Assembly: GCA_965207945.1 (NCBI GenBank)
Contig: OZ242303.1
Location: forward strand, 61,199 to 125,198
DNA: 64,000 nucleotides
Reading direction: 5' to 3'
DNA from: Gammaproteobacteria bacterium
GTDB taxonomy: Bacteria; Pseudomonadota; Gammaproteobacteria; CBDBNL01; JAAOII01
Part shown: one piece after another, positions 4,271 through 59,945 of the stretch
Layout: every line of letters starts with the position of its first letter
How positions within the stretch are numbered: position 1 is the stretch's first letter
The notes under the pieces: generated by a model
Told to the model about the DNA's origin: nothing
What the model saw: the letters and a program-made list of their open reading frames with translations, nothing else
The model's database searches: none
Position numbers and translations under genes: made by a program

Positions 4271-4407
4271 ATATGTATTATAGGGAAAACTTTATAAATG
4301 TGAGGCAATGTTAAGCATAGTTAGACATTATTTGCGGAAATTTTGGATTATTATTGCTCTAATCACTTGTAATTGAAGCATAAAGATCTATAAATAACTG
4401 TGTAATG

Positions 4408-4416
4408 TGGTATAAT
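4408..4416 (+). promoter_or_regulatory. Candidate extended -10 element (TGgTATAAT) for rpoD in the divergent guaB/rpoD intergenic region.
   Basis: The sequence tgtggTATAAT sits 38 nt upstream of the annotated ATG at 4454. I see no good -35 hexamer. Confidence 0.3.
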
Positions 4417-4453
4417 TATACCCCAATCGGCACCCTTTACATTAAATACATAA

Positions 4454-7117
4454 ATGATTGATAAACAGACAAGCGGAAAAGCAGCAGAGCCGCCTAAAAA
4501 AGATGCGGGCAAATCCTCTGGAAACTCCGCTACAAAACCCGCAATAAAGATTGCAAAGGTTGCGCGTAAAAGTGCAACAGCAAAAACATTGAAGGCATCA
4601 GAAGTGCTAAAGTCGTCGTCAAAGGCAGTAAAGCCATCAGGGGCGTCAAAGCCGTTAAGCAAGCAAGCCAAGCCAGTTGCGGTTAAAAAAGCAAAACCAG
4701 CTGCTTCCGCTTCTTCCAAGCCAGCGAAGGGAACAGCGAAGGGAACTAAGTCAGCTAAGCCCAAGTCAGCAGCACCTAAAGCAGTTGTTTCTAAGAAGAG
4801 TGCATCAAGTCCATCCAAGACGAGCAAACCTTCAACTACAGCTAATAAGAAGGCAAAACCCGTCACCAAGGCAGCTGCTAAACCATCAGCCAAGCCATCC
4901 GCTAAATCATCAACCAAATTAAAGTCAGGGTCAAAGCTGACATCACGCAATAAATCTAATACTAAACATAAAGAGGGGACAAAAATGTTATCTACAGCTA
5001 CAACAACCGCAAACAAAGCGGAAGAGACGAGAGTAATAAAAACGGCAGACGCTTTAAATAAAACGGGAAATAAAACGGGAAAGAAAGCCAGTAAAAGCGT
5101 ATCAGCTAAACCAGCAACTAAAGGAAAAACAAAAGCTAAAATTACTGCATCAAACCAGAAAGCAGCTACCAGTAAAAAGACATCGCAAGATTCATCAACA
5201 ACTAAAGGCAAGGGGTTTGATGATTATAAAATTAGCGCCAGGTTGGAAGAGCTAATAGCCAAAGGAAAAGAAGCAGGCAAGATTGGCAACGATGATATAG
5301 ACCAATGCATTGCAGATATAGTGGAAGACCATGAAGATATCAATGTAACCGAACTCACTTCCCATATAGCCGAAGGGCTGCGCTCTAATGATGTTGACGT
5401 TAAAGACGAAAGTGAAAGCGATTTGGATTATAACGTTAGCGGCTTGTATGACGATGATGATTCAAGCTCGGACGTAAAAGTAGATGCAGATAGTTTAGGG
5501 GATGCTCCTTCAAGCGGAAATTTCTTGGCAGGGAGTATAGATGATATGGACCACCTAAGCCCCGAGGAATTAACTGGACCAGGCAGAGGGGCAATAAGCG
5601 CTCCAATAAAAATGTATATGCGCCAGATGGGTTCTCATGCTCTGCTGGATCGTGAAGAAGAATTAACCTTAGCCAAAAGGATAGAACACAATATGCGTAG
5701 TGTGATGGGGCAGCTGGCTTATTTTCACTACGAAGTTCAGAAAGTAGTTGATAGCCATAATGCAGCTCATAAAGCCAAAGGTAAATTTAATGAGGTGTGC
5801 ATGGCGCTTTATCGTGAAGATGAAGTAGATATGACAGCTCAGATAGCTGAAGTAAAGAAGAACATGCCCAAGAGTGTTTCGGTGCAGAAGCGCCGCAGCA
5901 ATATCAGCCAACGCATGAAGAAGCTGCGCAGCGATATGAACGATATAATGACTCGCTTGGAAAGACAACTCAAGGCAGCCAAACTATCTTATCAAAATGG
6001 CGATGCTCTGGGTAAGGTAGCTCGGAAAAAACAAGAGCACCTGAGCCGCACTCTTTCTTTGATGAAACTGCAGCCCCATTACTATGAGGAGCTAATTTTA
6101 AATGCAGAAAACCTATTGCGTTCTATTTATAAGGCGGAAGAGGTTATAGAAAACATAGCAGTTGGCAAGGCGGGCTACGACAAAGAACTTATTCACGAAA
6201 AGGTAATATCCACTCCTCGCTATTTTACCTCTCTGGCAAAACGCACTGGACCTAAGGCGAAGATAATTGAAAAACATCTGAAAGAACTTGAAGATGCAGC
6301 CAGTGATTTGCTTATGGTAGTCATGGTATGTAATATGCCGTTAGATATGATTAAGAAATTGACTAAGAATATTCTCACCGCGAATCGCCAAGCAGATAAG
6401 GATAAAAAGAAAATGGTAGAGGCAAATTTAAGGTTGGTTATCTCAATTGCTAAAAGATATACTAATCGCGGACAACAATTGCTGGACTTAATCCAAGAAG
6501 GCAATATTGGATTGATGAAGGCAGTGGATAAGTTTGAATATAAAAGAGGATTCAAGTTCTCTACTTATGCTACTTGGTGGATAAGACAAGCAGTTACCCG
6601 CTCTATCGCCGACCAAGCGCGCACTATACGGGTGCCCGTCCACATGATAGAGACAATGAATAAACTCAGCCGTCTGCAAAGAACCGCCATGCAGAAATAT
6701 CAGAGAGAAGCAACTCCGCAAGAACTCGCAGTGGAGATGGAATTGCCAGAAGATAAAATCCACCGCATGCTGAAAATTGCTAAAGAGACAATTTCTACCG
6801 AGACCCCAGTGGGAGATGAGGAGGACGCAAGTTTGAAGGATTTTATTGAAGACACCCAAACCCTATCTCCTTATGAAACAACTCTAAAGACAAACCTAAA
6901 GACCGAGATGCATAAAGCAATTAGCTCTTTACCCGAGAAAGAGGCAAAGGTGTTGAGTATGAGATTTGGCTTGGAAACCAATAGCGACTATACATTGGAT
7001 GAGATTAGCCGCCAACTTTCGGTAACCCGTGAAAGAATTAGACAGATAGAATCCCGTGCCCTGCGCCGCCTGAATAATTTAGCTAATGTTGAAACAATAA
7101 AAGAATTTAGGGAATAA
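4454..7117 (+). CDS. rpoD: RNA polymerase sigma-70 (RpoD) with a ~250-aa Lys/Ala-rich histone-H1-like N-terminal extension. An alternative internal start at 4985 is possible.
   Basis: Regions 1.2 through 4 are conserved ([10 protein letters not shown], the [19 protein letters not shown] 2.4/-10 recognition segment, and the region 4 helix-turn-helix). The N-terminal 250 aa are KPAAK/KSAKP repeats, and the ORF stays open through them. Confidence 0.9.
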
Positions 7118-7168: not shown

Positions 7169-7242
7169 GGGCCTGTAGCTCAGTCGGTTAGAGCAGTGGA
7201 CTCATAATCCATTGGTCGTAGGTTCGAGTCCTACCGGGCCCA
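7169..7242 (+). tRNA. tRNA with a CAU anticodon. By synteny after rpoD this is probably tRNA-Ile2 (ileX-like, lysidine-modified); elongator tRNA-Met is the alternative.
   Basis: A 74-nt cloverleaf can be drawn: acceptor GGGCCTG/CGGGCCC, D-stem GCTC/GAGC, anticodon loop CTCATAA, T-arm GTAGG-TTCGAGT-CCTAC. CCA is not encoded. Confidence 0.85.
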
Positions 7243-7259
7243 CTATTTATAAATACTTA

Positions 7260-10200
7260 TCAATCCACCCACAACCTGGCATTGTAAAACATTGCTTGCC
7301 AAGGGGTTATATAAGAGGTTGCCACCTCCGCTTTTCTTTGTATGGCTGTGGCGGATTTATCATGCCAGCACTGATTCACTCTTCTTAACGTCCTTTCTGG
7401 ATGCGGCATTAATAGCGTAACCCTGCCATCTTTGGATGTCATACCGGCAATGCCATGCTCAGAACCATTGGGATTGAGCGGATAAGCGGGATTATCATTT
7501 CCCTGTCCGTCTGTATAAACCATTGCTGCTCGTTTCTTGTTAAGCGCCTGTTCGCCGTCCTTGCTCCTGCTAAAAGTTGCCATGCCTTCACCATGTGCCG
7601 AAGCAATTGGTATAACGCTACCTTCCATGCCTGTAAAAAATATACTTGGTGATTTGCATATTTTCACCATAACCGTACGTGCTTCAAACCTACGTGATTC
7701 GTTACGCTGGAAGCGGCAATTCCAATCCGCCCCTTCAATAATCTCCTGTAGGCGAGACAGCACCTGACAACCATTGCATATCCCCAGCGTAAAGGTATCC
7801 TTGCGTTGAAAGAATTGCTGAAACTCTTCTTTAAGTTTGGGATTATATAGAATGCTTGCCGCCCAACCAACTCCAGCGCCCAAAGCATCGCCGTAAGTAA
7901 AGCCGCCACAGAAAACTGCCCCTTTATAATCCTTCAATTTATCGGAGCCATCTTTTTTGAGGTCATTTATATGCACATCCACCGCCTCAAAACCCGCATT
8001 ATGAAAGGCAAGAGCGGTTTCTATATTACTATTCACTCCCTGTGTGCGCAAAATTGCAACCTTAGGACGGCTTTTGTTTAGCAGCTTTATGCTGTTATAG
8101 CTATTATATTTCCCCGCCATATCAAACTTAATATTCTCTTGAATTCCTTTATAGTTAAAATCTTCTATTAGGAGCGCTTCCTGTTTAACACACTGTGGAT
8201 TATCATCCCTGAGTTCACGTATATTATCTGAAACCTTGTTCCACAACGAACGCATTGCACTCATCTTTTTATCTATCAGAGTCCGTCCAGCACAGCTAAT
8301 TTCTATCCTATCTTTATCAATGGGGACGCCAAGCTTATGCACAACTAAATTATGTTGCTTTCCACGCTCTAATACCTTACTCTCATTCTCGGGCGCCACT
8401 TGGATAACAGCACCTGCCTCTTCACCAAATAGGGCGGTATACTCATTCTGCTGTTGTTTCATCATCCCAGTTAAATCAATGGATAGCCCGCAATTGGAAG
8501 CAAAAGCCATTTCACTTAACGTTGTCCATAACCCGCCATCCGACACATCATGATAGGCAAGCAATAACTTATCGTGCACTGCATCGCTAACAAAAGAAAA
8601 GAAGTTGGCAATATCCTTGGGCGACTCTATGTCCGCAGTTTCCCCCTCCCATTGTTGCATCACTTGTGCCAGCGCCGAACCCCCAAGACGATTACTGCCA
8701 TGCCGTGTGCTAACCAGCCACAAGGAGGGCAGCATATTTTTATAAGTGTCGGTATGTAATAGTGAGTTGTCAGCACCAGTGTTTTTATAAGTGTCGGTTT
8801 GCAATAGCGAGTTGTCAGCACCAGTGTTTTTATAAGTGTCGGTATGCAATAGTGAGTTATCGCCATCAATGTTTTTATAAGTGTCGGTTTGTAATAGTGG
8901 GTCAACCCCCAACCTGACATCTATTAGTGGCGCCAGCCCGCTCATTATCAAAGATAGAGGCGATATAACATTTTGCTTATCCCAGGAGGCAGACATAAAT
9001 AAAGAATCCTTGCCAACCGGTATAGCAAGCCCCAACTCCTGACACATTTCTTCAGTTAAAGTCCTAACCCCCTCATAGAGATTTGCCATCTGACCATCCT
9101 CATTGCTGGCAGCCATCCAGTTAGCACATAGTTTTATATCCTGTAGTTTCTTTATGCCGCTGGCAGCCAAATTAGTTACTACCTCTGCCAATGCCATACG
9201 CACCGCCGCTTTGGGATTGAGGATTGCCAAAGGAGTACGCTCACCAATTGCCGCCGCCTCACCACCAAACCCGCTAAAATCTGCCAAAGTGGCGGCATAA
9301 TCATTGATTGGCACTTGCCAGGGACCAACCATCTGCTCTCGCGCCGTCAGACCGCCAACAAACCTATCACCAATAGTAATTAGAAAGCCCTTGCTTGCCA
9401 CCGCTGGCAACTGCAGCACCTTCTCTGCATACTCACTAATCTCGCTAATGTTTGGTACCACAAAATCCTTAGTTTCAACTGGTACATAAGAGACGATAAT
9501 CTCCTTAGGTGTTTTAGGGAATAGAATTTCAAGGGGCAAGTTGATGGCATCGGTATCCCGACTATCTTCTTTATTCTCACGATTATCCTTATTATCCTGC
9601 TGCATCAGACGCAGTTCACCACTCTTGTTAGTTTTACCTATTACCTTGTAAGGAGCATTCTCACGCTGGCAGATTTTATCAAACTCATCCAAACGCTCTG
9701 GATCCACCGCCAGCAAAAATCTCTCTTGGCTTTCATTACTCCATACTTCTGCTGGAGACATAGAAGGATCCGCAACAGGAATATCACGCAGCTCAACCTC
9801 ACCACCACATTTGCCATCCTTCAACAGTTCCGCTACTGCGTTGCCGAGCCCTCCAGCTCCCAAGTCGTGTATAAAAATAATTGGGTTTTTCTTCCCCTGG
9901 CGCGAGCAGGCCTCAATCGCCTCTGCACATCTTTTTTCCGTCTCCGCATTATCACGTTGCACCGAAGCAAAATCTAACTCTACATTCTTCTTGCCGCCGC
10001 TACTTTTAAGGGAAGATACTGAACCACCACCAATCCCAATTCGTAATGCAGGTTCTCCCATAAGCACTAAATGCGCTCCCTCATCAATTTCCTCTGGCTT
10101 GATAGCTTGGTCGTTGCTAATCTCGCCCCAACCACCAGCAAGCATAATTGGTTTATGATAACCGTATTTGATACCATCTCTTTCACAACTTAGAGTGCGA

Positions 10201-11507
10201 AAGTATCCTGCCAAGGTAGGTCTGCCAAACTCATTAGCATAGTGACTGCTACCCAAAGGTGCCTCCAACATTATCTGTTGGGCTGATGCCTTGCCAAAAG
10301 GGCAACCAAAATCCTGCTCCCAAGTATAATTATTTTTATCCAACAGCAGGTCGGATACACTAAAGCCAGCAAACCCAGCTTTAGTTCTACCTCCTATGCC
10401 GCAGGCGAGTTCATCCCTTATCTCTCCGCCAACCCCAGTGGCAGCCCCTGGAAAGGGTGACACAAATGTAGGATGATTGTGTGTTTCGGCTTTGAATATT
10501 AGATGACGCTTTTGTTCTCTATGCTGATATTCACTAGAGCTATCTCCCTCATAACGATTGAAAGCAGATATCTTTGCAGTGGCAAAGATAGCCGCATTAT
10601 CTGTATATGCGGAAACTAAACCAGCAGGAGATTTTTTACTGGTTTCTTTGATGAGCCCAAACATTGTCGGACTGTGACCATTCTGGCTTGAAGATTTATC
10701 CGCCGAGTCGTCGCTGCTTATCACAGCATTAAAAATCTTATGGCGACAATGTTCCGAATTAAGTTGCGCAAACAGCATCAACTCTGCATCTGTAGCAGGG
10801 CGTTCAAGCTTGTGATAAACCTCCCGCAGATACTCTAACTCATCCTCACTAATCGCCAAACCCCATTCTCTATTGGCAACTTGCAGCTCAGCAAGGTCAT
10901 CCATATTGACACGCCTTAAATCATTGTCGGCATGGCTATCAATAAAATACCGCTCCAATTCTTGCTCGGACAATATCTCTTGCGTCATCTTATCGCAAAC
11001 TGAACCTTTCAACTCGTCTATATTATTTTTCAATGAAGCAGGAAGTGCATATTTATAACCCTTTTCAATTAATCTTCCACCATCCCAATCTTTTAACGAA
11101 GGAAAAATATCCTCAAGTATATCCTGCGTCTTGCTCGACCAAGGAGAATGAGTGCCACGCCGCGGCGCCACATAAAAGAGGGTATCTCGGAAGGAGTGAG
11201 TAGCCGCCTGGCTGTGAGAGGGTGCATCATCTTTATTAGCCAGTGATATCGCGCCAAAATTTGTACTGAATAATAATTTTTTCAGTTGTTCTTTTTCTCG
11301 CTCATTAAAAGGGTGATCTGGATGAAGGAAAAAGAACTCGCTACGAGTTGCAGTATAAATTGATTTAACAACATGCCCTTTACCGGATTTGGGTGCATGA
11401 AGGATAACTGGAATATCTATCTTCTCACTTGACAATCCCTTTTCGTCAAAAATAATCTCGGTGCGTGATTGTTTGTCCGACTCTGACACCAAATCCTTAT
11501 GATTCAT
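7260..11507 (-). CDS. purL: Phosphoribosylformylglycinamidine synthase, large single-chain form.
   Basis: 1415 aa. The FGAM synthetase core is followed by a C-terminal glutamine amidotransferase domain with GICNGCQ. It carries extra insertions relative to E. coli PurL (1295 aa). Confidence 0.95.
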   Translation of the reverse strand: MNHKDLVSESDKQSRTEIIFDEKGLSSEKIDIPVILHAPKSGKGHVVKSIYTATRSEFFFLHPDHPFNEREKEQLKKLLFSTNFGAISLANKDDAPSHSQAATHSFRDTLFYVAPRRGTHSPWSSKTQDILEDIFPSLKDWDGGRLIEKGYKYALPASLKNNIDELKGSVCDKMTQEILSEQELERYFIDSHADNDLRRVNMDDLAELQVANREWGLAISEDELEYLREVYHKLERPATDAELMLFAQLNSEHCRHKIFNAVISSDDSADKSSSQNGHSPTMFGLIKETSKKSPAGLVSAYTDNAAIFATAKISAFNRYEGDSSSEYQHREQKRHLIFKAETHNHPTFVSPFPGAATGVGGEIRDELACGIGGRTKAGFAGFSVSDLLLDKNNYTWEQDFGCPFGKASAQQIMLEAPLGSSHYANEFGRPTLAGYFRTLSCERDGIKYGYHKPIMLAGGWGEISNDQAIKPEEIDEGAHLVLMGEPALRIGIGGGSVSSLKSSGGKKNVELDFASVQRDNAETEKRCAEAIEACSRQGKKNPIIFIHDLGAGGLGNAVAELLKDGKCGGEVELRDIPVADPSMSPAEVWSNESQERFLLAVDPERLDEFDKICQRENAPYKVIGKTNKSGELRLMQQDNKDNRENKEDSRDTDAINLPLEILFPKTPKEIIVSYVPVETKDFVVPNISEISEYAEKVLQLPAVASKGFLITIGDRFVGGLTAREQMVGPWQVPINDYAATLADFSGFGGEAAAIGERTPLAILNPKAAVRMALAEVVTNLAASGIKKLQDIKLCANWMAASNEDGQMANLYEGVRTLTEEMCQELGLAIPVGKDSLFMSASWDKQNVISPLSLIMSGLAPLIDVRLGVDPLLQTDTYKNIDGDNSLLHTDTYKNTGADNSLLQTDTYKNTGADNSLLHTDTYKNMLPSLWLVSTRHGSNRLGGSALAQVMQQWEGETADIESPKDIANFFSFVSDAVHDKLLLAYHDVSDGGLWTTLSEMAFASNCGLSIDLTGMMKQQQNEYTALFGEEAGAVIQVAPENESKVLERGKQHNLVVHKLGVPIDKDRIEISCAGRTLIDKKMSAMRSLWNKVSDNIRELRDDNPQCVKQEALLIEDFNYKGIQENIKFDMAGKYNSYNSIKLLNKSRPKVAILRTQGVNSNIETALAFHNAGFEAVDVHINDLKKDGSDKLKDYKGAVFCGGFTYGDALGAGVGWAASILYNPKLKEEFQQFFQRKDTFTLGICNGCQVLSRLQEIIEGADWNCRFQRNESRRFEARTVMVKICKSPSIFFTGMEGSVIPIASAHGEGMATFSRSKDGEQALNKKRAAMVYTDGQGNDNPAYPLNPNGSEHGIAGMTSKDGRVTLLMPHPERTLRRVNQCWHDKSATAIQRKAEVATSYITPWQAMFYNARLWVD
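8737..8905 (-). repeat. In-frame tandem 45-bp repeat of about 3.7 copies inside purL, encoding four 15-aa units of the form LLQTDTYKN(T/I)G(A/D)DNS.
   Basis: The plus strand shows tttttataagtgtcggt(a/t)tg(t/c)aatag(t/c)gagttgtcagcaccagtg repeated head to tail. The frame is preserved through the repeats. Confidence 0.85.
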
Positions 11508-46333: not shown

Positions 46334-46355
46334 TTAATAAAGGAGGTATATACAA

Positions 46356-48908
46356 ATGAGGAGGAAGTTCATAGAGAAGCTTATTAAGTTTCAGGCGGCA
46401 TTGATGCCGTGGCATGTCTTTAACAAACATAACATAAGCATTGTAATTTTATCATTTATGGCTTTAGTGCTAACATCTTGTGGTTCAAGCGATAATTCTG
46501 GGACTACGCGCCCGTTTGTCAACGAAGTTATTTCAGTGGAACAAAATGCGCCTATACTGGATAATGAGGGCAATCTGGAAAGAAGCGGACATCTTTTTGT
46601 TAGCTTATCCGTAGACGAATTATTTTGGCGGCAGGTATCACAGGCAACAAGTAAAATAGAAGTTGTTAATGAAGATACTGAAGAGAGTGTAGAAATAACG
46701 GTTCCCCTTGCCTATCTGGCAAATAGCTGGAGGGTTGATTTTGGTTTTGTCTATCCTGGCAACTATACCCTTGCCGCAACCTTTTCTCGTGTAGATGGCG
46801 TAAATATAAACGGCACAGACATTGCTTATATTGAAACTCCTATTCAGATTACTCAGGGCGAAGAAGAAAACTCCTTCATTTATTTTGATGTAGATTCTGC
46901 TCTTATTATAATTCCACCGCAGAGGTTAGTGGACACAGATGGTAACGGTCTGCTGGAAATAATAGATATGGCTCAATTTGAAGATGTCCGTGGAAATCCA
47001 AACGGCAACTATGAGTTGACGCGTGATTTTGACCTGACGAGATACCTCAATTACAAAACTCCTATTGACTCCATGGACTATAGATTAGGACGTAGCTTTG
47101 GGAAATGGCAGCCCATCGGCAAAGATGAGTTTACTCCTTTTACTGGCATATTTGAAGGTAACGGTTATACCATTAGCGGCGTTTCCGTTGAGGGGTTTGA
47201 GTATACTGGCTTTTTTGGCTATGTTAGGGGAGCAACAATTAGCAACACTGACTTTAACATAACGAGCATCAGCGGCAATTCTCATGTTGGCGGTTTAGCG
47301 GGCATTGCAACAACTAATAGCCGCATCAGCAATGTGAATGTTACTATAAGTGGAGATTTATCTAGCACAGCTTTAAATGACAAAGATAACTTATTTGTCG
47401 GTGGTCTACTCGGAAAGGGTGATGATATTTTTATGGTTGATTCTTATGCTACTATTGAGGGGGATATCTATGCAAGTGGCGGAGCTTCATCGCGAGTAGG
47501 TGGATTAGCTGGCAACATATATCGCAGCATAATTCAAAACCCTAAGGTCAGGGTTGCTGGAGATATACTATTGTCTGCAACTGGGGATGATTCATTAGGT
47601 GGAGGATTGGCTGGCATGTCAGAGCAAAACCAAATAATCAATCCGCAAATTACGGTTGGCGGCAAAATATCTTCTTTCCCAGTTCTTGAGTCCGCTAGTA
47701 ATTTTGTAGGTTCTTTTAAGTTAGGTGGCATGGCAGGCATAGCTTATGATACTGATATTAAAAATATTACTATTGAAGTTGATAATGGTATCATGGCTCA
47801 ATCCGCAGGGTATTCCTACTTGGGCGGTTTAGCCGGAGATATGGATGGCACGGATATACAAGAGGCACTTATTCGTATAGGTCAACCTATCAGTGCTGAA
47901 CTGTTAGATAGTGGCAGCTGGGTTGGAGGCGTGGCAGGAAGTGCCCGTAATGCTCTGGTGAATGCTACCGATGTGATTGTTGATGATCTAAAGATTACCT
48001 CTTCTGCACAAGCTAATAATTATGGCGGCGGCTTATTCGGCTTTGCTCGCCAAGTTGATATGGCTTCTATAGTTTTATCCGTAGAAGAGGTTGATGTTTC
48101 TGCGATTAATCATAATGCTTTTGCTGCTGGTTTGATTGGTGTTAGTGAGGATAATAATATCAACAAAGTGTCTATGTCCGTAAATAAGATCACTGCCTCT
48201 GCCCCACGTTCAGAGGGCTACAGCAGCGGCTTGATAGGGGTATCGGATGGCGATGAAATTACTGATGTATTTTTGGGCACCTCCTCTACCATAAATGCTG
48301 TTGGGCGGACAACTACCTCAGCAACAGGAGGGATTGGTTCTTTTGTTGACGGCACTCTATCATCATCATATTTTCTTATGGGTGGTAATATACACTCATT
48401 ATCAATGGGTGAAGTTAATGAGTTGGCTAATACTTATGCATCAGGAGTTGTAGGGTTTTGTAGTTTTTGTGAGATGAGTAACATTTATGTAGAGGCGGAA
48501 AGAAATATAAGCGCTTCCGCGACAGGAACGGTCTCAGTCGGCGGCATTATAGGAGCAGCAAGTTCTGCTTCAGTTATTACAAACTCTTACGCGGTTATCA
48601 GGGGAGATATATCTGCGCCTTACCCTCATTCTTATACTGGTGGATTAGCAGGATGGATATTAAATGGTGAGCTGGCAGCAACTGGAGTTTATTATCTGGC
48701 AAATCGCGCCACAAGCCAGAACAGTGGTATTTTTGAGAGTTCAGCTGGTGAGGCACGTAGTTTGCAACAGCTAAGTTGTCCTACTGCACCCAATGCCAGC
48801 TGCGAACTCCAGGGAAATGGCGTTACCTATTCTGATTGGGATGAGAGTATATGGAACTTTGGCACGACAGACGATCTGCCAGAATTACGGATTTTTCAAA
48901 ATTTTTAA
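46356..48908 (+). CDS. P3: GLUG-repeat surface lipoprotein (850 aa).
   Basis: GGAGG Shine-Dalgarno, lipobox VLTSC, the W(Q)PIG…FTGIFEGNGYTISGVS module, then GGLAG/GGLVG beta-helix-type repeats. The conserved C-terminus is ELQGNGVTYSDWDESIWNFGTTDDLPELRIF. Confidence 0.75.
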   Translation: MRRKFIEKLIKFQAALMPWHVFNKHNISIVILSFMALVLTSCGSSDNSGTTRPFVNEVISVEQNAPILDNEGNLERSGHLFVSLSVDELFWRQVSQATSKIEVVNEDTEESVEITVPLAYLANSWRVDFGFVYPGNYTLAATFSRVDGVNINGTDIAYIETPIQITQGEEENSFIYFDVDSALIIIPPQRLVDTDGNGLLEIIDMAQFEDVRGNPNGNYELTRDFDLTRYLNYKTPIDSMDYRLGRSFGKWQPIGKDEFTPFTGIFEGNGYTISGVSVEGFEYTGFFGYVRGATISNTDFNITSISGNSHVGGLAGIATTNSRISNVNVTISGDLSSTALNDKDNLFVGGLLGKGDDIFMVDSYATIEGDIYASGGASSRVGGLAGNIYRSIIQNPKVRVAGDILLSATGDDSLGGGLAGMSEQNQIINPQITVGGKISSFPVLESASNFVGSFKLGGMAGIAYDTDIKNITIEVDNGIMAQSAGYSYLGGLAGDMDGTDIQEALIRIGQPISAELLDSGSWVGGVAGSARNALVNATDVIVDDLKITSSAQANNYGGGLFGFARQVDMASIVLSVEEVDVSAINHNAFAAGLIGVSEDNNINKVSMSVNKITASAPRSEGYSSGLIGVSDGDEITDVFLGTSSTINAVGRTTTSATGGIGSFVDGTLSSSYFLMGGNIHSLSMGEVNELANTYASGVVGFCSFCEMSNIYVEAERNISASATGTVSVGGIIGAASSASVITNSYAVIRGDISAPYPHSYTGGLAGWILNGELAATGVYYLANRATSQNSGIFESSAGEARSLQQLSCPTAPNASCELQGNGVTYSDWDESIWNFGTTDDLPELRIFQNF

Positions 48909-48933
48909 TATGATTAACAGGGAGGATTAATTT

Positions 48934-51690
48934 ATGCAAGCGGAGGTTATTAAAACAAGGGCTATTATGGCTGTCTTGTTGCTGGCAGCACTGTTCAGCG
49001 GCTGCAGTTCCAGCAGTAAATCAAACAGCAGTGGGGCGTCACAGAATCCAGCGCAGAGTCGCGGGGAAGCCAGGGAAGAGCTGGGGACGATAAAAGAACC
49101 GGCTTCAAGTGGCGAGATAAACAATGAATATAGTCCAGGCAGTGGGCGTCTTATTGTTAAGTTGGAAATTCTTGATAACTTAATTAGTTATGAGCAGGTA
49201 TCGTATGCGCGAGTCCATATAACTCCGCAGGACCTGACGGGCAAGGTGGGAGAATATTTATCGCTGCCAGAAGATTCCGCACCACAAGATGAGATTCCAC
49301 TTGACATTGATGCCTCGCTGGGCATTGATGTAGCGCTTAGCGTGGGGGATGAAAGCGCCCGTCTGGACTTTGGCTATGTTGCTTTTGGACGCTACATCCT
49401 CAATGCGACAATCTATCATAACAACGGCAGAGCTCTTGCTTATAGCGAATTACTTATTGATGTTGGCTTGGCGGACGATGTCCAAGTTGGCGACTCCCAA
49501 GTTGGCGACTCCCAGATTGACGACACCCAGATTGACGACACCCAAACAGGCGAAGCAGAAGTTCCAATAGAGTATATTCGTCCGAATCCTGATGCGACAG
49601 ATACCGCTTTAGCGGAATATACAGCTACACTCATTTTTGATTTATCTTCGGCTTTGTTTCGTCTGGTAACTCTGCCGTTAGTTTTTACTGATGATGATAA
49701 TGATGGACTACTGGATGTCTGGCATCCCGCCTATCTTGCAGCAATTGCTAATGACTTAGATGGCGGATTGGATGGCAGCTATGAACTGACAGAAGATATT
49801 GACTTATCTTCCTATGATAACCGGGGAAACTGGGACAACCGGGGAAACTGGCAGCCACTGGGCAGTGAAGAGCAGCCCTTTAGGGGAACTTTTGTTGGCA
49901 ATGGTCATAGCATTAGAGGTCTCTCCGTCAAGGGACATAGCAGAGCCGGCTTATTCGCCGCTTTAGATGGAGCGAGCGTAAGAGACCTGATGGTTGAGGT
50001 GTGGCAGATTAATGCATCTAACTATAATGATGCTTCATATAGCGCTGGTTTTGCGGGAGCTGTTGCGGGGCTTGCCACTCATAGTACTTTTGCCAACATT
50101 ACAGTTGAGATGAATTCTTATGACGATGAATCACCATACATAACTGCATTTGCACAAGATGGTGTAACTTATGTTGGTGGCTTGGTTGGCCGCGTCAGGA
50201 ATAGCGTCATAGATAACACAACAATTATGGCGAACGGCATAATATCAGCCATGTCATTGGGAGATGACTATAGGGCACGTTCTTACGTTGGTGGATTGGC
50301 TGGATTAGTTAATCTATTCAATGAAATTACAAATGTTGAAGTTGTTGGGGAAGTTGATTTGCTGGCGAGCAGCTTTGATGGGGTATCAATGGGTGGTCTG
50401 ATAGGGTCGCTAACAAGGAGTGAAGTTAGTGCGGCAAGGGTTGCACTTAGCGGCGACATAATATCTTATAGTGATAATAATTATTTATTATCTGGCGGCG
50501 CAGTGGGAGAATGCAGCAGCTCTCCTATTGTTGATATGAATATTTTTGTTGAAGGAAATATACTGGCGGAATCATCCGGGGGTGGTGGTGATGTCTATGT
50601 TGGCGGAGCTATTGGGGAAGCAGACCGTTGCAACATTATCAATTTAAAAACAGATACTTATGGGACCATTAGCACTACAGGCAGTTATGCGGATAGAACT
50701 TATTTTAGCACAGGAGGTTTAGTGGGTTTTAGTCAACGGACGGAAACTAATCATGTTACGGTTACGCATAATGGCGATTTGCTTTCATTGGGTGATTCTT
50801 GCTATGTTGGTGCTGTAGTGGGTTACTCCTATTATGAAATAATGAATAATGTATCCGCAACAATTAATGGCAATCTAATCGCTGGAGCACCTAATAGTGA
50901 AGTTGGTATTTCTTTTAATTGCCATGTCGGGGGTATACTCGGTTATTCAGAAAATCTTATTGTAAGCAATTCTTATGCCATAGTTAATGGAGATGTTCTC
51001 TCTTATGCTAATAATAACCCTGCTAAGGCGGGAGGAATTGTGGGGAAAAATGAGAAAGACATAGAAATTGATAACTCTTATGCATTGATTAAAGGCAACT
51101 TGGCTGCCACTTCATTTTTTGCGCCGACTTATATAGGCGGTTTGGTTGGCGACTCTGATGGTGAGCTGTTGATAGTCCATGATTCTTATGTTCAGATTTT
51201 AGGCAATATAACCCTGCGGAGTATTTTTTCTGAGGATGAAAATGTCTCTTCTGGTGGAAACTTTGTTGGCATAACAAAGGGAGCTTATTTTGCTAACTCT
51301 TATGTTTTTATTGGCGGCAAGGCATCTGCCATAAATATACCGGTGCTCGGCACTTCTTCACCAGCCGTCTTTGGCGGTGCCTGGGGTGAGACAAAGATGA
51401 CTAACAATGACCCATATAGTATAACGTTGAGCTCGTCTTATTATAGGTCGCAGCGCGAGTTAGGTGAGGGTGGTTTTAATAGCGCTGAAGTGGACGGTGA
51501 TGCGATTGATGTAGATCGCAGTGACTTGCAACTACGTTGCCCGCAAGCGGCGGGACAAAATTGCGGAGGAGCCGTAACGCCAGGCAATCCGCAAACTTAT
51601 GTCGGTTGGGATGAGAGCGTATGGGACTTTGGTGCGGCAGACGAACTGCCCAGATTAAGAGTTTTTCCAAGTACTAATTTATTGGATTGA
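48934..51690 (+). CDS. P4: GLUG-repeat surface lipoprotein (918 aa), a member of the near-identical paralog set P4-P8.
   Basis: The GGAGGATTAATTT-ATG ribosome-binding site and lipobox LFSGC are conserved. So are the N-terminal ~130-aa block (GRLIVKLEILDNLISYE…), the DDDNDGLLDVWHPAYLAAIA and NWQPLGSE(E)QPFRGTFVGNGHSI(R/S)GLS module, and the C-terminus QLRCPQAAGQNCGG…TPGNPQTYVGWDESVWDFGAADELPRLRVF. Confidence 0.8.
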   Translation: MQAEVIKTRAIMAVLLLAALFSGCSSSSKSNSSGASQNPAQSRGEAREELGTIKEPASSGEINNEYSPGSGRLIVKLEILDNLISYEQVSYARVHITPQDLTGKVGEYLSLPEDSAPQDEIPLDIDASLGIDVALSVGDESARLDFGYVAFGRYILNATIYHNNGRALAYSELLIDVGLADDVQVGDSQVGDSQIDDTQIDDTQTGEAEVPIEYIRPNPDATDTALAEYTATLIFDLSSALFRLVTLPLVFTDDDNDGLLDVWHPAYLAAIANDLDGGLDGSYELTEDIDLSSYDNRGNWDNRGNWQPLGSEEQPFRGTFVGNGHSIRGLSVKGHSRAGLFAALDGASVRDLMVEVWQINASNYNDASYSAGFAGAVAGLATHSTFANITVEMNSYDDESPYITAFAQDGVTYVGGLVGRVRNSVIDNTTIMANGIISAMSLGDDYRARSYVGGLAGLVNLFNEITNVEVVGEVDLLASSFDGVSMGGLIGSLTRSEVSAARVALSGDIISYSDNNYLLSGGAVGECSSSPIVDMNIFVEGNILAESSGGGGDVYVGGAIGEADRCNIINLKTDTYGTISTTGSYADRTYFSTGGLVGFSQRTETNHVTVTHNGDLLSLGDSCYVGAVVGYSYYEIMNNVSATINGNLIAGAPNSEVGISFNCHVGGILGYSENLIVSNSYAIVNGDVLSYANNNPAKAGGIVGKNEKDIEIDNSYALIKGNLAATSFFAPTYIGGLVGDSDGELLIVHDSYVQILGNITLRSIFSEDENVSSGGNFVGITKGAYFANSYVFIGGKASAINIPVLGTSSPAVFGGAWGETKMTNNDPYSITLSSSYYRSQRELGEGGFNSAEVDGDAIDVDRSDLQLRCPQAAGQNCGGAVTPGNPQTYVGWDESVWDFGAADELPRLRVFPSTNLLD
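49483..49555 (+). repeat. Internal 15-bp x~5 in-frame repeat in P4 (QVGDS QVGDS QIDDT QIDDT QTGEA). Shorter versions occur in P5 (~52273-52310) and P8 (~60511-60565).
   Basis: caagttggcgactcc and cagattgacgacacc units lie head to tail. Confidence 0.8.
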
Positions 51691-51715
51691 CATGATTAAC
51701 AGTGAGGATTAATTC

Positions 51716-54442
51716 ATGCAAGCGGAGGTTATGAAAGCAGGGGGGATTACAACAAAGGGGATTACAACAAGAACTGTTATAGTGTTTTTGTTGCTGGCAG
51801 TCCTGTTCAGTGGCTGCAGTTCTAGCAGCAACTCAGGTGGTGCAAAATCGCCAGGGACGCCACAGCAGCCAGAGCAGAGTCGCGGGGAAGCTAGAGGAGA
51901 AGCTGGCGCGGGGCAACAACCGACTTCAAGCCCAATTTCAAGCGGTGAGATAAACAATGAATATACTCCTGGTAGTGGTCGCCTTATTGTTAAGTTAGAT
52001 ATTCTTGATAACTTAATTAGTTATGAGTCAGTATCGTTTGCGCGAGTATATATAACTCCGCTGGGCATAGATGCTGCGCATGATATTGATGACTCGCTGG
52101 GCATAGATGCCTCGCTTAGCATTGATGTTGCGCTTGATGTGGGAGATGAAAGCGCCCGTCTGGATTTTGGTTATGTTGCTTTTGGACGGTATATCCTCAA
52201 CGCGACAATCTATCACAGCAACGGCAGTGCTCTTGCTTATAGCCAGTCACTTATTGATATTGGTTTGGCGGATGACACCCAAGTTGGCGACACTCAAACA
52301 GGCGAAGCAGAAATCCAAATAGAATATATTCGTCCGAGTCCTGATGCAACAGATCCCAACTTAGCGGAATATACTGCCACGCTCATTTTTGATTTATCTT
52401 CATCTTTATTTCGTCTGGTAACTCTGCCATTAGTTTTTACTGATGATGATAATGATGGACTACTGGATGTTTGGCATCCCGCATATCTTGCGGCAATTGC
52501 TGATGACTTGACTGGTAGTTATGAATTAACGGCAGATTTGGATTTATCCTACTATAACGGTTGGGGTAACTGGCAGCCGCTGGGTAGTGAAGCATTACCT
52601 TTTAGCGGAACTTTTGTCGGCAATGGTCATAGCATTAGCGGACTCTCTAGCAAGGGATATAACAAAGCTGGCTTATTCGCCGTTGTAGAAGGAGCGAGCA
52701 TAACCGACCTTATAGTTGAGGCGTGGCAGATTAATGCATCGGACTATTACTATTCAAACGGTAATTTAAACGGAGATTTAAATGGGGCTTCTTATGCTGG
52801 CGTTGTTGCAGGTCTTGCCCGTTCCAGCACTTTTGCCAACATCACAGTTGTGATGAATTCTTATGACGATGAATCACCATATATAACTGCGTTGGCGCAA
52901 GATGGCGCAACTTATGTTGGTGGTTTGGTTGGTCGCGCCAGCAATAGCATTATAGCTAACACAACAATTGTGGCGAGTGGCATAATATCAGCCAATGCCT
53001 GGGGGAATAATAGTAGAGCGAAATCTTATGCTGGTGGGCTGGCAGGGTTGGTTGATGAAGGCAGTGAAGTTATGAATGTTGCGGTTACTGGGGAAGTTGA
53101 TGTGCGGGCGGACGGATTAACTGAAGCATTATCAGGCAATAAGTATGCTGGCGGTTTGTTAGGTAGAATAAATGATAGCAGAATAAGCGCGGTGAAAGTT
53201 GAGCTTAGTGGCGACATAATAGTTGATAATGGCAATTATTTATCAGCGGGCGGTGCAGTGGGCAACTGCAGGCACTCTTCCGTTGTTGATATGAATATTA
53301 TTATTGCTGGCAATATATTGGCGGAGTATTCTGGCAGGAATAACGATGCGGCTGCTGCTGGAGTACTTGGTGAGGTATTTCGTTGTGACATTACTAATGT
53401 AGTAAGCAAGTTCTTCGGTTTAATCAGCGCTGAAGGTTATGGTTATGTGACTGCAGGAGGGTTAATGGGATATGCTGAATATACGGCAATCAGCAATGTT
53501 AAGGTTACCCACCATGGCGATTTACTCTCATCAGGTGATTATTGCTACGTTGGCGGTTTAGCAGCTTACCACTCTTCATCTACTGCTCCCATACATAATT
53601 CATCCGCAATAATTAATGGCAATATAATTGCGGGGGTACCTAATAGTGAAGTCGGAGTTTACCTTGATTGCGAAGCTGGAGGGATGATTGGTTATTTATC
53701 TGGAGGCACTATTAATAGTTCTTATGCCATAGTTAATGGAGATGTTCGCTCTTATTCTAGTGGTAAACCTTCTGAGGTGGGAGGATTTGTGGGGAGTGGC
53801 ACTGGTGAACTAAAAATTGAGAAATCTTATGCATTGATTAAAGGTAACTTGGTTGCCTCTTCATTTTTTGCGCCAACTTATGTTGGCGGTGTAGTCGGCA
53901 TCTCTTATGGTTCGTTGGTGACAGTCCGCGATTCTTATGTTCATATTTTAGGCAATATAACCCTGCGGAGTATTTTGTCTGAGGATGACGCCATTTCTTA
54001 TGGTGGCAATTTTATCGGCAGAGTAAAGGGAGCTAATTTTGCTAACACTTATGTTTTTATTGGTGGCACGGCATCTGCCATAAATATACCAGAGATCGGT
54101 ACTTCCTCGCCGGCTATCTTTGGCGGCGTTTGGGGTGCTATTTCAAAGAGGACTGCCAATGAATCGCATAATATCACATTTAGCTCTTCTTATTATAGAT
54201 CGCAGCGCGAGCCAAGGGAGGGTGATTTTAACAGCGCTGATGTGGGCGGCGATGCAATTGATGCGGCTCGTAGTGATTTGCAACTACGTTGTCCGCAAGC
54301 GGCGGGACAAAATTGTGGCGGACTCATAACACCAGGCAACCCACAAACTTATGTCGGTTGGGATGAGAACGTATGGGACTTTGGTGCGACGGACGAGCTG
54401 CCCAGATTAAGAGTTTTTCCAAGTACTAATTTATTGGATTGA
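51716..54442 (+). CDS. P5: GLUG-repeat surface lipoprotein (908 aa), paralog of P4.
   Basis: It has the same conserved 5' and 3' blocks and ribosome-binding site as P4, with a divergent central repeat region. Confidence 0.8.
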   Translation: MQAEVMKAGGITTKGITTRTVIVFLLLAVLFSGCSSSSNSGGAKSPGTPQQPEQSRGEARGEAGAGQQPTSSPISSGEINNEYTPGSGRLIVKLDILDNLISYESVSFARVYITPLGIDAAHDIDDSLGIDASLSIDVALDVGDESARLDFGYVAFGRYILNATIYHSNGSALAYSQSLIDIGLADDTQVGDTQTGEAEIQIEYIRPSPDATDPNLAEYTATLIFDLSSSLFRLVTLPLVFTDDDNDGLLDVWHPAYLAAIADDLTGSYELTADLDLSYYNGWGNWQPLGSEALPFSGTFVGNGHSISGLSSKGYNKAGLFAVVEGASITDLIVEAWQINASDYYYSNGNLNGDLNGASYAGVVAGLARSSTFANITVVMNSYDDESPYITALAQDGATYVGGLVGRASNSIIANTTIVASGIISANAWGNNSRAKSYAGGLAGLVDEGSEVMNVAVTGEVDVRADGLTEALSGNKYAGGLLGRINDSRISAVKVELSGDIIVDNGNYLSAGGAVGNCRHSSVVDMNIIIAGNILAEYSGRNNDAAAAGVLGEVFRCDITNVVSKFFGLISAEGYGYVTAGGLMGYAEYTAISNVKVTHHGDLLSSGDYCYVGGLAAYHSSSTAPIHNSSAIINGNIIAGVPNSEVGVYLDCEAGGMIGYLSGGTINSSYAIVNGDVRSYSSGKPSEVGGFVGSGTGELKIEKSYALIKGNLVASSFFAPTYVGGVVGISYGSLVTVRDSYVHILGNITLRSILSEDDAISYGGNFIGRVKGANFANTYVFIGGTASAINIPEIGTSSPAIFGGVWGAISKRTANESHNITFSSSYYRSQREPREGDFNSADVGGDAIDAARSDLQLRCPQAAGQNCGGLITPGNPQTYVGWDENVWDFGATDELPRLRVFPSTNLLD

Positions 54443-54467
54443 TATGATTAGCGGAGAGGATTAATTT

Positions 54468-57170: not shown

Positions 57171-57195
57171 TATAATTAACGGAGAGGATTAATTT

Positions 57196-59907: not shown

Positions 59908-59945
59908 TATATTGAATTAATATAATTAAAAGAGAGAATAAATTT

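Follow-up and report, generated by a model that had tools for sequence, protein, structure and literature searches.

Which part of this rpoD gene encodes the sigma factor? In the window (the whole stretch of DNA analyzed, 64 kb, from an uncultured gammaproteobacterium), the rpoD reading frame continues for roughly 250 lysine- and alanine-rich codons upstream of its recognizable sigma-70 domains; this raises the questions of whether the extension is translated, how it is related to the histone H1-like proteins that it resembles in composition, and what it might do on a housekeeping sigma factor.

Domain architecture

A single rpoD ORF of 887 aa occupies positions 4454-7117 of the forward strand. 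It divides as follows:

4454..4984, + strand: hypervariable tail part, codons 1-177; K/A/S/P-rich, net charge +42
4985..5218, + strand: more conserved tail part, codons 178-255; K/T/A-rich, net charge ~+13
5225..5404, + strand: sigma region 1.1, an acidic three-helix domain, aa 258-317 (NCBIfam, AF2, Foldseek, charge profile)
5411..5596, + strand: acidic, disordered linker that joins region 1.1 to region 1.2, aa 320-381 (charge profile, AF2)
5603..7117, + strand: regions 1.2, non-conserved, 2, 3, and 4 plus the stop codon (Pfam; Foldseek to E. coli and V. cholerae sigma-70); Sigma70 region 1.2 is at aa 384-412 (Pfam)

The ORF is a group 1 (housekeeping) sigma-70, or RpoD, with a canonical acidic region 1.1. 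Pfam models for Sigma70_r1_2 (1.8e-9), r2 (9.5e-24), r3 (7.1e-21), and r4 (1.9e-16) all exceed their gathering scores; the Sigma70_ner model, for the non-conserved region between 1.2 and 2, reaches 23.9 bits against a cut-off of 29.7. The NCBI RpoD equivalog NF004208 is the top-scoring NCBIfam model (532.6 bits, short of its 555 cut-off, with the next model at 357.9), and its alignment begins only at aa 243 (model position 6). For region 1.1, Pfam PF03979 has no match in the window RpoD at E<=0.01; AF2 predicts the three region 1.1 helices at 258-274, 279-292, and 298-311 (pLDDT 80-87), as well as a helical insertion at the non-conserved region. The top structural match of this model is E. coli sigma-70, with Foldseek alignments to E. 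coli sigma-70 chains spanning ~630 columns. No second RpoD-like protein from the same 1.86-/2.06-Mb contigs is found among the matches listed, and the closest named RpoDs (Pseudomonadales, Halomonas, Marinobacterium) share at most 31% identity in the N-terminal half.

Upstream of this scaffold, aa 1-242 consist of 24.8% K, 18.2% A, 15.7% S, 10.7% T, and 6.6% P, with a net charge of +55 (63 K+R against 8 D+E) and neither aromatic nor Cys residues. A reading made from the sequence alone had described a polycationic lysine/alanine-rich stretch of ~250 codons with KPAAK, SAKPS, and KKAK motifs; the extension is borne out at ~242-255 aa, and the quoted motifs are present in its translation. AF2 returns no secondary structure for aa 1-254 (pLDDT ~33), and the more conserved part, codons 178-255, is likewise predicted to be disordered (pLDDT ~30). 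As region 1.1 and the linker together carry a net charge of -26, the +55 tail abuts an acidic -26 segment, making the window RpoD a blocky polyampholyte. In a six-frame scan of the 64 kb, the tail was the sole segment of such lysine-rich, acid-poor composition. Judged from its sequence, this RpoD very probably bears a translated, disordered, polycationic, low-complexity N-terminal extension.

Probable translation of the tail and candidate start sites

Three further features bear on where, and on which strand, translation of this region begins:

4408..4416, + strand: extended -10 promoter element TGgTATAAT, read from the sequence
4971..4987, + strand: internal SD-like AAGAGGGG, 6-nt spacer, and in-frame ATG; candidate secondary start at codon 178
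4363..5211, - strand: antisense 282-aa "shadow" ORF

Over 254 codons the sense frame has no stop, while the two remaining forward frames have 11 and 25. After mononucleotide shuffling of these 762 nt, the frame was closed in all 5000 replicates (mean 13 stops), so the open frame exceeds chance expectation even at this T-poor composition. The frame is also open across 172-255 codons at all five loci of the clade, whose sequences cannot be aligned with one another. The earlier view that the tail is translated is supported. The antisense ORF was rejected as a gene: codon-usage log-likelihoods do not separate the two frames (-3.954 per codon for sense, -3.933 for antisense), but in a comparative stop-codon test the antisense frame is broken at two of the five loci (one stop in L004, three in L007). 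It arises as a by-product of the K/A-rich codons on the sense strand.

Translation probably begins at ATG 4454, to judge from sequence conservation. The N-terminus reads MIDKQTS in the window and its closest relative (L003), and MIDKLNK in P0005, a protein only ~50% identical in its core. ATG 4454 lacks an SD (SD:anti-SD duplex energy +1.7 kcal/mol); many genes of the window also lack one and have TATAAT within ~10 nt of the ATG, so that the absence of an SD is normal here. The -10 hexamer of the extended -10 element ends 37 nt 5' of ATG 4454, which predicts an SD-less leader of ~30 nt. The same TGGTATAAT element sits just 5' of where the long ORF begins in L003, L004, L006, and L007, such that an extended -10 directly precedes the long ORF at five of six loci; the intergenic region is near-identical between the window and L003. 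The consensus promoter scan missed this element because it has no -35 match. Transcription would then start from the conserved extended -10 (4408-4416), with translation from ATG 4454 on a short SD-less leader. With Rfam, the rpoD leader and its surroundings yielded no known RNA element and the window as a whole only two tRNAs, and the terminator-like hairpin at 4924-4941 (- strand) is one site where shuffles predict 1.5.

The sequence-only reading had also pointed to a very good SD with a 6-nt spacer before an internal ATG at 4985, and proposed a shorter sigma factor or two isoforms. The site is where it was said to be: AAGAGGGG lies at 4971-4978 and the ATG at 4985-4987, with a duplex energy of -8.2 kcal/mol. 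A comparably strong SD lies upstream of only ~1.3% of tail positions, and this ATG is the sole internal in-frame ATG of the tail. On L009, a contig with DNA identical to that of the window, one gene caller chose the 4985 start, giving the 710-aa P0123; this protein was accordingly dismissed as a tail-less relative. The strong SD at 4985, the missing SD at 4454, and this gene call are what favor translation only from 4985 or later, with 4454-4984 being a long 5' leader that is open by accident. We regard such an arrangement as very improbable, given the shuffling result, the persistence of the open frame in five clade members despite full sequence turnover, strain indels that are all in frame, the retained MIDK N-terminus, and the frequency of SD-less genes in this genome. 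In L005, moreover, a complete region 1.1 is attainable only from a start near codon 1.

A second product alongside the full-length one is a less remote prospect, though still a tentative one: the tailed 887-aa form from 4454 and a 710-aa form from 4985 may be made from the same mRNA, in which case the short form would retain ~65 aa of basic tail and the balance between the forms would adjust the amount of tailed sigma. No promoter-like site was found inside the tail on the + strand in the consensus scan, and any short form must therefore arise by internal initiation. The strength and ideal spacing of the SD, its rarity in the tail, the gene caller's preference, and a still stronger counterpart in L003 (-11.1 kcal/mol) are all consistent with two isoforms. 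The conservation in L003 carries little weight, however, because this locus and the window are too close (dS ~0.2), and the internal SD and ATG are confined to these two. No equivalent SD and start near the boundary of tail and region 1.1 occurs in L004, L005, or L007; L005 has no in-frame ATG from codon 39 to region 1.1; and AAG-GAG-GGG simply codes for K-E-G. The internal signal is real, and a shorter isoform made from it would be possible but is less likely than not. Two isoforms would be compatible with the explanation of the tail that we favor below.

Variation within the clade

The tail changes quickly in length and sequence. Members of one 90%-identity cluster have RpoDs of 887, 831, 818, and 809 aa, all of these differences being in-frame repeat changes. 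Between the window and L003, codons 1-177 differ by in-frame indels of 58, 4, 4, 1, and 9 codons and show 58% aa identity and a dN/dS of ~0.37 in the alignable part; the conserved part of the tail, from codon 178, shows 75% aa identity and a dN/dS of ~0.95. At ~0.4 for aa 1-177 and ~0.95 for aa 178-242, these ratios suggest that the primary sequence of the tail is near neutral. The hypervariable part contains short tandem repeats that keep the frame (12 nt at 4722-4746 and 24 nt at 4865-4917). In-frame slippage in steps of 12 and 24 nt would drive the evolution of the tail, with length and sequence turning over fast while the basic K/A/S/T character is retained.

Net charge stays between +30 and +56 across all five lineages, and the L005 tail remains basic despite a GC shift from 42% to 54%. 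None of the five has lost the tail or has it interrupted, which is the outcome of the comparison of related rpoD N-termini that had been proposed as a check. Frameshifted or absent tails in relatives would have counted against the extension; the two apparent cases are both artefacts, P0123 being the gene-caller start choice described above and P0003 (684 aa) resulting from a scaffold N-gap within KPAAKQDK repeats, with a true ORF of 828 aa. The nearest relatives without any tail are P0136/L010, P0137, P0283, P0284, and P0006/L002. In the outgroup L010, which shares rpoD-purL synteny, in-frame stops lie upstream of an RpoD of 622 aa. The tail would thus have been gained after the clade's split from these tail-less relatives.

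Such turnover invites the reading that the tail is a near-neutral, slippage-driven low-complexity expansion, which the flexible sigma N-terminus would tolerate and which would have no specific function, in small-genome and probably host-associated bacteria under weak selection. The dN/dS of ~0.4-0.95 and the fast gain and loss of repeats are consistent with it, as are the sizes of the related genomes (1.07-2.06 Mb). Since the same genomes carry other in-frame expansions, the tail could be tolerated rather than useful: the window contains many further in-frame coding repeats, purL includes an in-frame 45-nt repeat (x3.6), and PurL in the clade is 130-240 aa longer than in the outgroup. We nonetheless consider a purely neutral tail unlikely. 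Composition and charge have been kept in five lineages through both the turnover and the GC shift, no lineage of the clade has lost or interrupted the tail, and basic tails recur independently in Betaproteobacteria and Actinobacteria, being functional in Mtb (PMC12312024).

Comparison with histone H1-like proteins

The description of the tail as H1-like stands for composition; it does not stand for motifs or homology. The tail contains no S/TPKK, a single KPAA, and no (S/T)(A/T)AKK, against 8 KP[AS] and 7 AKP, and its Ser/Thr content exceeds its Pro content. Searched alone, it matches nothing in Pfam (best E 3.7, an unrelated DUF) or NCBIfam, no PDB chain at E<=10, and none of 8000 word-sharing candidates from a 5.8-billion-protein database at E<=1e-3. 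The tail is therefore not assignable to any family by homology.

The C-terminal domain of eukaryotic linker histone H1 is likewise disordered, polycationic, and rich in K, A, P, and S/T. H1 tails contain roughly 40% Lys; the window tail has 25%, lacks S/TPKK, and shows no detected homology to them. Among Gammaproteobacteria, the Pseudomonas "histone H1-like" proteins AlgP and PhaF also have disordered K/P/A-rich tails, whose repeat number differs among clones (PMC9239181), a parallel to the 887/831/818/809-aa series of the window clade. These tails are C-terminal, belong to non-sigma proteins, and are built of regular KPAA tandem repeats, whereas the window tail has one KPAA. AlgP KPAA peptides bind DNA, and the AlgP tail is found at polyP granules, which it spaces (PMC9239181); in PhaF, KPAA motifs in the disordered region bind specific mRNAs (PMC12818456). 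In Streptomyces DdbA, a lysine-rich H1-like segment is also fused to a protein acting on RNA polymerase, through a DksA-like domain. DNA is bound and condensed by this segment, and DdbA was put forward as a link between DNA conformation and transcription (PMC3643593). However, the partner in DdbA is a secondary-channel factor rather than a sigma factor, and its (S/T)(A/T)AKK pentapeptides are missing from the window tail.

Basic extensions on other primary sigma factors

A polycationic tail on a housekeeping sigma factor had been called unusual. This is so among its relatives, as no tail was found in the nearest tail-less relatives or in named gammaproteobacterial RpoDs; elsewhere such tails recur, and the window tail is no one-off. 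A basic N-terminal extension precedes region 1.1 in 24 of the 111 nearest RpoD representatives that have region 1.1 (about 20%), dozens of betaproteobacterial RpoDs have one, and basic extensions are also seen on actinobacterial sigma-A/HrdB. Long betaproteobacterial RpoDs (837 aa in Actimicrobium sp. CCC2.4; 750-1030 aa in many MAGs) have the same architecture as the window protein, with a K/A/P-rich tail of 140-417 aa and net charge +15 to +66 followed by region 1.1, region 1.2, the non-conserved region, and regions 2-4. These tails are Pro-rich, have less Ser/Thr than the window tail, come from a different class, and show no detectable tail homology. Within the literature searched, no description of a lysine-rich N-terminal tail on a proteobacterial RpoD was found, including these long betaproteobacterial proteins.

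In Actinobacteria, the primary sigma factor of mycobacteria, sigma-A (Mtb 1-205), also has a lineage-specific disordered N-terminal extension. Its removal in Mtb (205 residues) cuts Vmax ~100-fold (PMC12312024), and in vivo complementation fails with a protein truncated by its first 179 residues (PMC12312024, citing Singha et al.). In the M. smegmatis protein, a positively charged stretch of 60 aa comes first and an acidic one second (PMC11656743). The two cases differ in phylum and origin, with sequence similarity confined to regions 2-4; the mycobacterial extension replaces canonical region 1.1 whereas the window tail precedes a recognizable one, and the basic block is ~240 aa and Ser/Thr-rich in the window, four times longer than the ~60 aa of mycobacteria. 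Lysine-repeat low-complexity segments likewise occur on the DNA-acting Streptomyces proteins HrdB, TopA, Ku, and HupS; such tails are needed for DNA interaction in Ku and mycobacterial HupB, and lysine repeats confer processivity on TopA (PMC7398561, PMC3553676). The actinobacterial repeats are of PAKKA/AKKA types and differ from the window tail in motif, position in the protein, and phylum.

No tail-to-tail similarity with the sigma extensions of other lineages was detected and the nearest relatives are tail-less, which argues for independent gain; the window tail appears to be an analogous, independently acquired member of a functional class rather than of a homologous family. It is a clade-specific case of a recurring, little-studied sigma-factor feature and not an isolated oddity.

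Possible function

The function we infer to be likeliest for the tail is modulation of initiation through non-specific binding of nucleic acid; we hold the chance that it acts in this way to be about even. On sigma and the holoenzyme alike, the tail would serve as an arm that binds nucleic acid electrostatically and without specificity, and, being joined to the channel-gating region 1.1, would sit near the DNA channel. It would most likely touch duplex DNA near the promoter, the acidic region 1.1 and linker, or both. The outcome could be altered promoter association, open-complex formation, or holoenzyme recycling, an effect analogous to the raising of transcription output by the mycobacterial sigma-A extension.

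The main partner of a functional tail might also be something other than DNA, namely RNA (nascent transcripts or rRNA), polyphosphate granules, or, within the protein itself or through condensates, the acidic region 1.1/linker. The mRNA binding of the disordered KPAA region of PhaF (PMC12818456), the location of the AlgP KPAA tail at polyP granules (PMC9239181), and the adjacency of the +55 and -26 blocks in the window RpoD are consistent with such partners; on the other side, the window tail has just one KPAA, and a charge-based partnership with region 1.1 finds no echo in charge co-variation. Across 281 RpoDs, the charge of the tail and that of region 1.1 plus linker are correlated at Spearman rho +0.21, which is not compensation, and the latter is slightly less acidic in tailed sigmas (mean -14.8 vs. 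-16.4); compensatory co-variation was rejected on these data. A principal partner other than DNA is in our view possible but improbable.

The best explanation overall, and one we consider reasonably probable, is a translated, clade-specific polycationic tail on rpoD that modulates initiation via nucleic acid. A much bolder version, which we think unlikely, has the tail make sigma a built-in nucleoid-associated or condensate-forming module, with repeat length tuning global transcription, at least three convergent origins, and an internal-start isoform switch. If true, the holoenzyme would be concentrated by charge on the chromosome, RNA, or polyP; the origins would be this gammaproteobacterial clade, the Betaproteobacteria, and the Actinobacteria; this convergence would indicate a general, overlooked principle of sigma-factor design; and in this lineage the switch would consist in a second isoform with almost no tail, made from the internal start.

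Implications

The locus illustrates a hazard for annotation, in that start calls differ (887 vs. 710 aa on identical DNA) and assemblies break within the tail repeats, as with the N-gap that shortens P0003. It also offers an experimental opening: this clade and the long betaproteobacterial RpoDs carry basic tails on an E. coli-like sigma having both region 1.1 and the non-conserved region, and because tail-less close relatives provide pairs with and without a tail on this well-understood scaffold, the question can be put to the test using core enzyme from E. coli.

Within sigma-70, region 1.1 acts as the gate to the RNA polymerase DNA channel. An arm of 240 residues and +55 charge attached to it is placed where promoter search, open-complex formation, and sigma recycling could change, and Mtb sigma-A, the sole experimentally studied analogue, indicates that extensions of this kind can shift transcription output by two orders of magnitude.

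Architecture of the rpoD gene

The rpoD gene and the features that bear on its N-terminus are:

4454–7117, + strand: rpoD, a single ORF of 887 aa
4971–4978, + strand: Shine–Dalgarno (SD)-like AAGAGGGG, with a 6-nt spacer to ATG 4985
4985–4987, + strand: in-frame internal ATG, codon 178
4363–5211, − strand: antisense "shadow" ORF of 282 aa opposite the N-terminal tail

Pfam places sigma-70 regions 1.2 (aa 384–412), 2, 3, and 4 above threshold, with a sub-threshold match to the non-conserved region. The best model by far is the NCBIfam RpoD equivalog (532.6 bits, slightly below its cut-off of 555); its alignment starts only at residue 243, and ~242 residues therefore precede anything recognizably sigma. 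This tail (aa 1–242) is 24.8% K, 18.2% A, 15.7% S, 10.7% T, and 6.6% P, contains no aromatic or Cys residues, and has a net charge of +55 (63 K+R vs. 8 D+E). A six-frame scan found no comparable composition elsewhere in the 64-kb window. These data bear out the sequence-only reading, which described a lysine/alanine-rich tail ahead of the sigma regions within one ORF. Over 254 codons the frame contains no stops, as compared with 11 and 25 in the other forward frames, and 0 of 5000 shuffles of the tail's own bases remained open; the open frame is not an artifact of T-poor composition.

The same reading likened the tail to histone H1. The K/A-rich composition supports this, but motifs and homology searches do not: the tail has no S/TPKK, one KPAA, and no (S/T)(A/T)AKK motif, alongside eight KP[A/S] and seven AKP, and searches with the tail alone of Pfam, NCBIfam, PDB chains, and a 5.8-billion-protein collection returned no match. 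The likeness is one of composition only, and the tail is not a histone-H1 homolog.

An AlphaFold2 model built with a 24-sequence alignment assigns no secondary structure to aa 1–254 (pLDDT ~33), a confident three-helix domain to region 1.1 (aa 258–311; pLDDT 80–87), an acidic disordered linker to aa 320–381, and a well-modeled sigma core to the remainder. In Foldseek, the model is matched best by sigma-70 of E. coli and V. cholerae; these matches include chains with region 1.1 resolved, which align over ~630 columns. Charge is distributed in blocks, +55 across aa 1–242 followed by −26 across region 1.1 and the linker.

Conservation and translation of the tail

A 2.06-Mb MAG chromosome (OZ242292.1) is the closest relative. 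Its RpoD (P0001, 831 aa, encoded in locus L003) shares the N-terminus MIDKQTS with the window RpoD and is 95%–99% identical to it across the core. The guaB-rpoD intergenic regions are near-identical, including an extended −10 element, TGGTATAAT, and the two tails differ by in-frame indels of 58, 4, 4, 1, and 9 codons. Within a 90%-identity cluster, RpoD variants of 887, 831, 818, and 809 aa differ solely in the count of SASTSASK-, KPTT-, and KHKDI-type units; the tandem-repeat units in the tail are 12 and 24 nt, and its evolution is of the slippage type. Sample ERZ25069764 contains both the 831-aa strain (L003, ctg6815_128x_c; 128x) and a window-identical strain (L009, ctg3680_3x_l; 3x), so two tail-length variants co-occur.

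More distant members of the clade encode RpoDs of 824 (P0002), 826 (P0004), and 847 aa (P0005), with cores 49%–59% identical to that of the window. Their tails (172–196 aa) are not alignable in sequence with the window tail but share its composition (K 21%–24%, net +30 to +39); P0005 retains the MIDK start. The sense frame is free of stops in all five clade loci, and the antisense frame is broken in two. Between the window and L003, dN/dS is ~0.37 for codons 1–177, where alignment within the repeats is uncertain, ~0.95 for codons 178–242, and 0.01–0.12 for the rest of the gene. Selection appears to act on the frame and composition of the tail and not on its exact sequence, as is typical of a disordered region.

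Both apparent examples of relatives with a broken or absent tail are artifacts. P0003 (684 aa) reflects a scaffold N-run inside KPAAKQDK repeats; its uninterrupted ORF is 828 aa. P0123 (710 aa, starting MLSTATTT) reflects the gene caller's choice of start: its source contig, L009, at 3x coverage, is 100% identical in DNA to window 4271–5020, and the caller picked the SD-preceded internal ATG and also called the antisense shadow ORF, here as a spurious ORF of 195 aa.

The shuffles, the frame open across the clade, and the in-frame strain indels make it very probable that the tail is translated, as the earlier reading had argued. Translation probably begins at ATG 4454: in five of six loci, TGGTATAAT lies close upstream of where the long ORF starts. 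No SD precedes this ATG, which is not unusual because many long ORFs in the window also lack one; several of these have TATAAT within ~10 nt of the ATG.

The internal SD, its 6-nt spacer, and ATG 4985 lie exactly where the earlier reading placed them in raising the possibility of two isoforms. SD:anti-SD pairing is predicted at −8.2 kcal/mol for 4985 versus +1.7 for 4454; an SD this strong lies upstream of only ~1.3% of tail positions. The motif is retained in L003 (−11.1 kcal/mol), but the clade loci L004, L005, and L007 have no equivalent internal SD and start, and in L005 the stretch from codon 39 to region 1.1 is devoid of in-frame ATGs. A second isoform would therefore be possible in the window lineage, and not a feature of the clade. 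No promoter-like site was found on the + strand inside the tail. On this evidence, a shorter RpoD from 4985 seems unlikely; it would retain ~65 basic residues.

Distribution and origin of the tail

The closest representatives outside the clade (P0136, P0137, P0283, P0284, and P0006 of locus L002) are all 618–637 aa and start at region 1.1. Upstream of rpoD in L010, the outgroup locus encoding P0136, are several in-frame stops and a separate promoter and SD. Named gammaproteobacterial RpoDs (Pseudomonadales, Halomonas, Marinobacterium, Marinomonas) are ~600–615 aa. Within its neighborhood, the tail is a clade-specific gain.

At L002 (OZ242372.1, 2050–5881), which belongs to a more distant relative, a P0006-like RpoD of 637 aa lacks the tail, and the classical dnaG-rpoD arrangement is kept. 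In the clade, rpoD adjoins both guaB and purL:

7260–11507: purL, containing an in-frame tandem repeat

As rpoD also lies beside purL in tail-less L010, with dnaG-rpoD in L002, relocation of rpoD preceded gain of the tail.

A search of 1.84 billion representatives used the tail-less core as query, and the sample is therefore unbiased as to the tail. Of the nearest RpoDs in which region 1.1 can be detected (111), 64 show the canonical form, 24 carry a net-basic extension of 30 aa or longer, and the other 23 are extended in other ways. Dozens of betaproteobacterial RpoDs, including the RefSeq-named RpoD of cultured Actimicrobium sp. CCC2.4, carry K/A/P-rich tails of 140–417 aa (net +15 to +66) before region 1.1. 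The suggestion that such a fusion would be unusual thus holds for the nearest outgroups and named gammaproteobacterial RpoDs, but not more widely. The tail is not a unique fusion. Primary sigma factors bearing disordered, basic extensions at the N-terminus form a recurrent class, of which this RpoD is a new case with an independently evolved tail.

Other features of the window

7169–7243, + strand: tRNA with anticodon CAT, directly downstream of rpoD
8737–8899, − strand: 45-nt × 3.6 repeat inside purL, inserting the 15-aa unit LL(H/Q)TDTYKNTGADNS into an essential enzyme
46355–62678, + strand: six tandem paralogous ORFs of 850–918 aa
62720–64000, + strand, continuing past the window end: lipoprotein-like ORF MKWGLLISALLLAMATTSC...

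In E. coli, ileX, encoding a tRNA-Ile with a CAU anticodon, lies close downstream of rpoD; by comparison, the window tRNA could reflect conserved synteny and be a lysidine-modified tRNA-Ile, not tRNA-Met. All coding-DNA tandem-repeat periods checked are multiples of 3. The six paralogs share a near-identical upstream RBS context (gattaacRgRgaggattaattt), with GLUG motifs (E = 1.5e-12 for 48934–51687) and a weak Peptidase_M26_N match in Pfam, and may represent a tandem-expanded surface or secreted protein family. The lipoprotein-like ORF contains an (E)EKPPK × 13 linker, from a 15-nt × 12.9 tandem repeat (62877–63082), followed by a domain resembling the GLUG paralogs. Many long SD-less ORFs have TATAAT 6–10 nt before the ATG, among them those starting at 4270 (−; guaB), 17159 (+), 31394 (−), and 38320 (+), a pattern suggesting that mRNAs with no leader or a very short one are common here.

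Possible function of the tail

Region 1.1 of sigma-70 lies within the DNA channel or at its mouth, and the structures matched by Foldseek agree. Among Actinobacteria, sigma extensions of this kind are already documented. In M. tuberculosis sigma-A, deletion of a 205-residue disordered N-terminal extension cuts Vmax ~100-fold, and a form truncated by the first 179 residues does not complement in vivo (PMC12312024). The first 60 residues of M. smegmatis sigma-A are positively charged and precede an acidic stretch (PMC11656743); the lysine repeats of Streptomyces HrdB resemble those in TopA, Ku, and HupS (PMC7398561). Lysine-rich low-complexity tails of Ku, HupB, DdbA, and AlgP bind DNA (PMC3553676, PMC7398561, PMC3643593, PMC9239181), and the TopA tail provides processivity (PMC3553676, PMC7398561).

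Given these DNA-binding tails and the position of region 1.1, the most economical model is a non-specific electrostatic arm, which we infer by analogy. The tail would contact promoter-proximal DNA and/or acidic region 1.1, and either contact would affect association, formation of the open complex, or recycling, as has been proposed for sigma-A. Alternatively, the partner might be RNA, which the KPAA disordered region of PhaF binds (PMC12818456), or polyP, which AlgP binds (PMC9239181).

Near-neutral expansion of the tail also has some support, since the same genomes carry other in-frame expansions, such as the repeat inside purL, and PurL is 1415–1525 aa in the clade versus 1288 aa in L010. 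However, the tail has stayed basic through complete sequence turnover and a change in GC from 42% to 54%, and none of the clade members lacks it.

A tail of this kind on RpoD is of moderate interest and would not astonish a specialist. Its value lies in the convergent recurrence of basic sigma extensions and in close relatives whose E. coli-like sigma lacks a tail, which make the role of such extensions testable.
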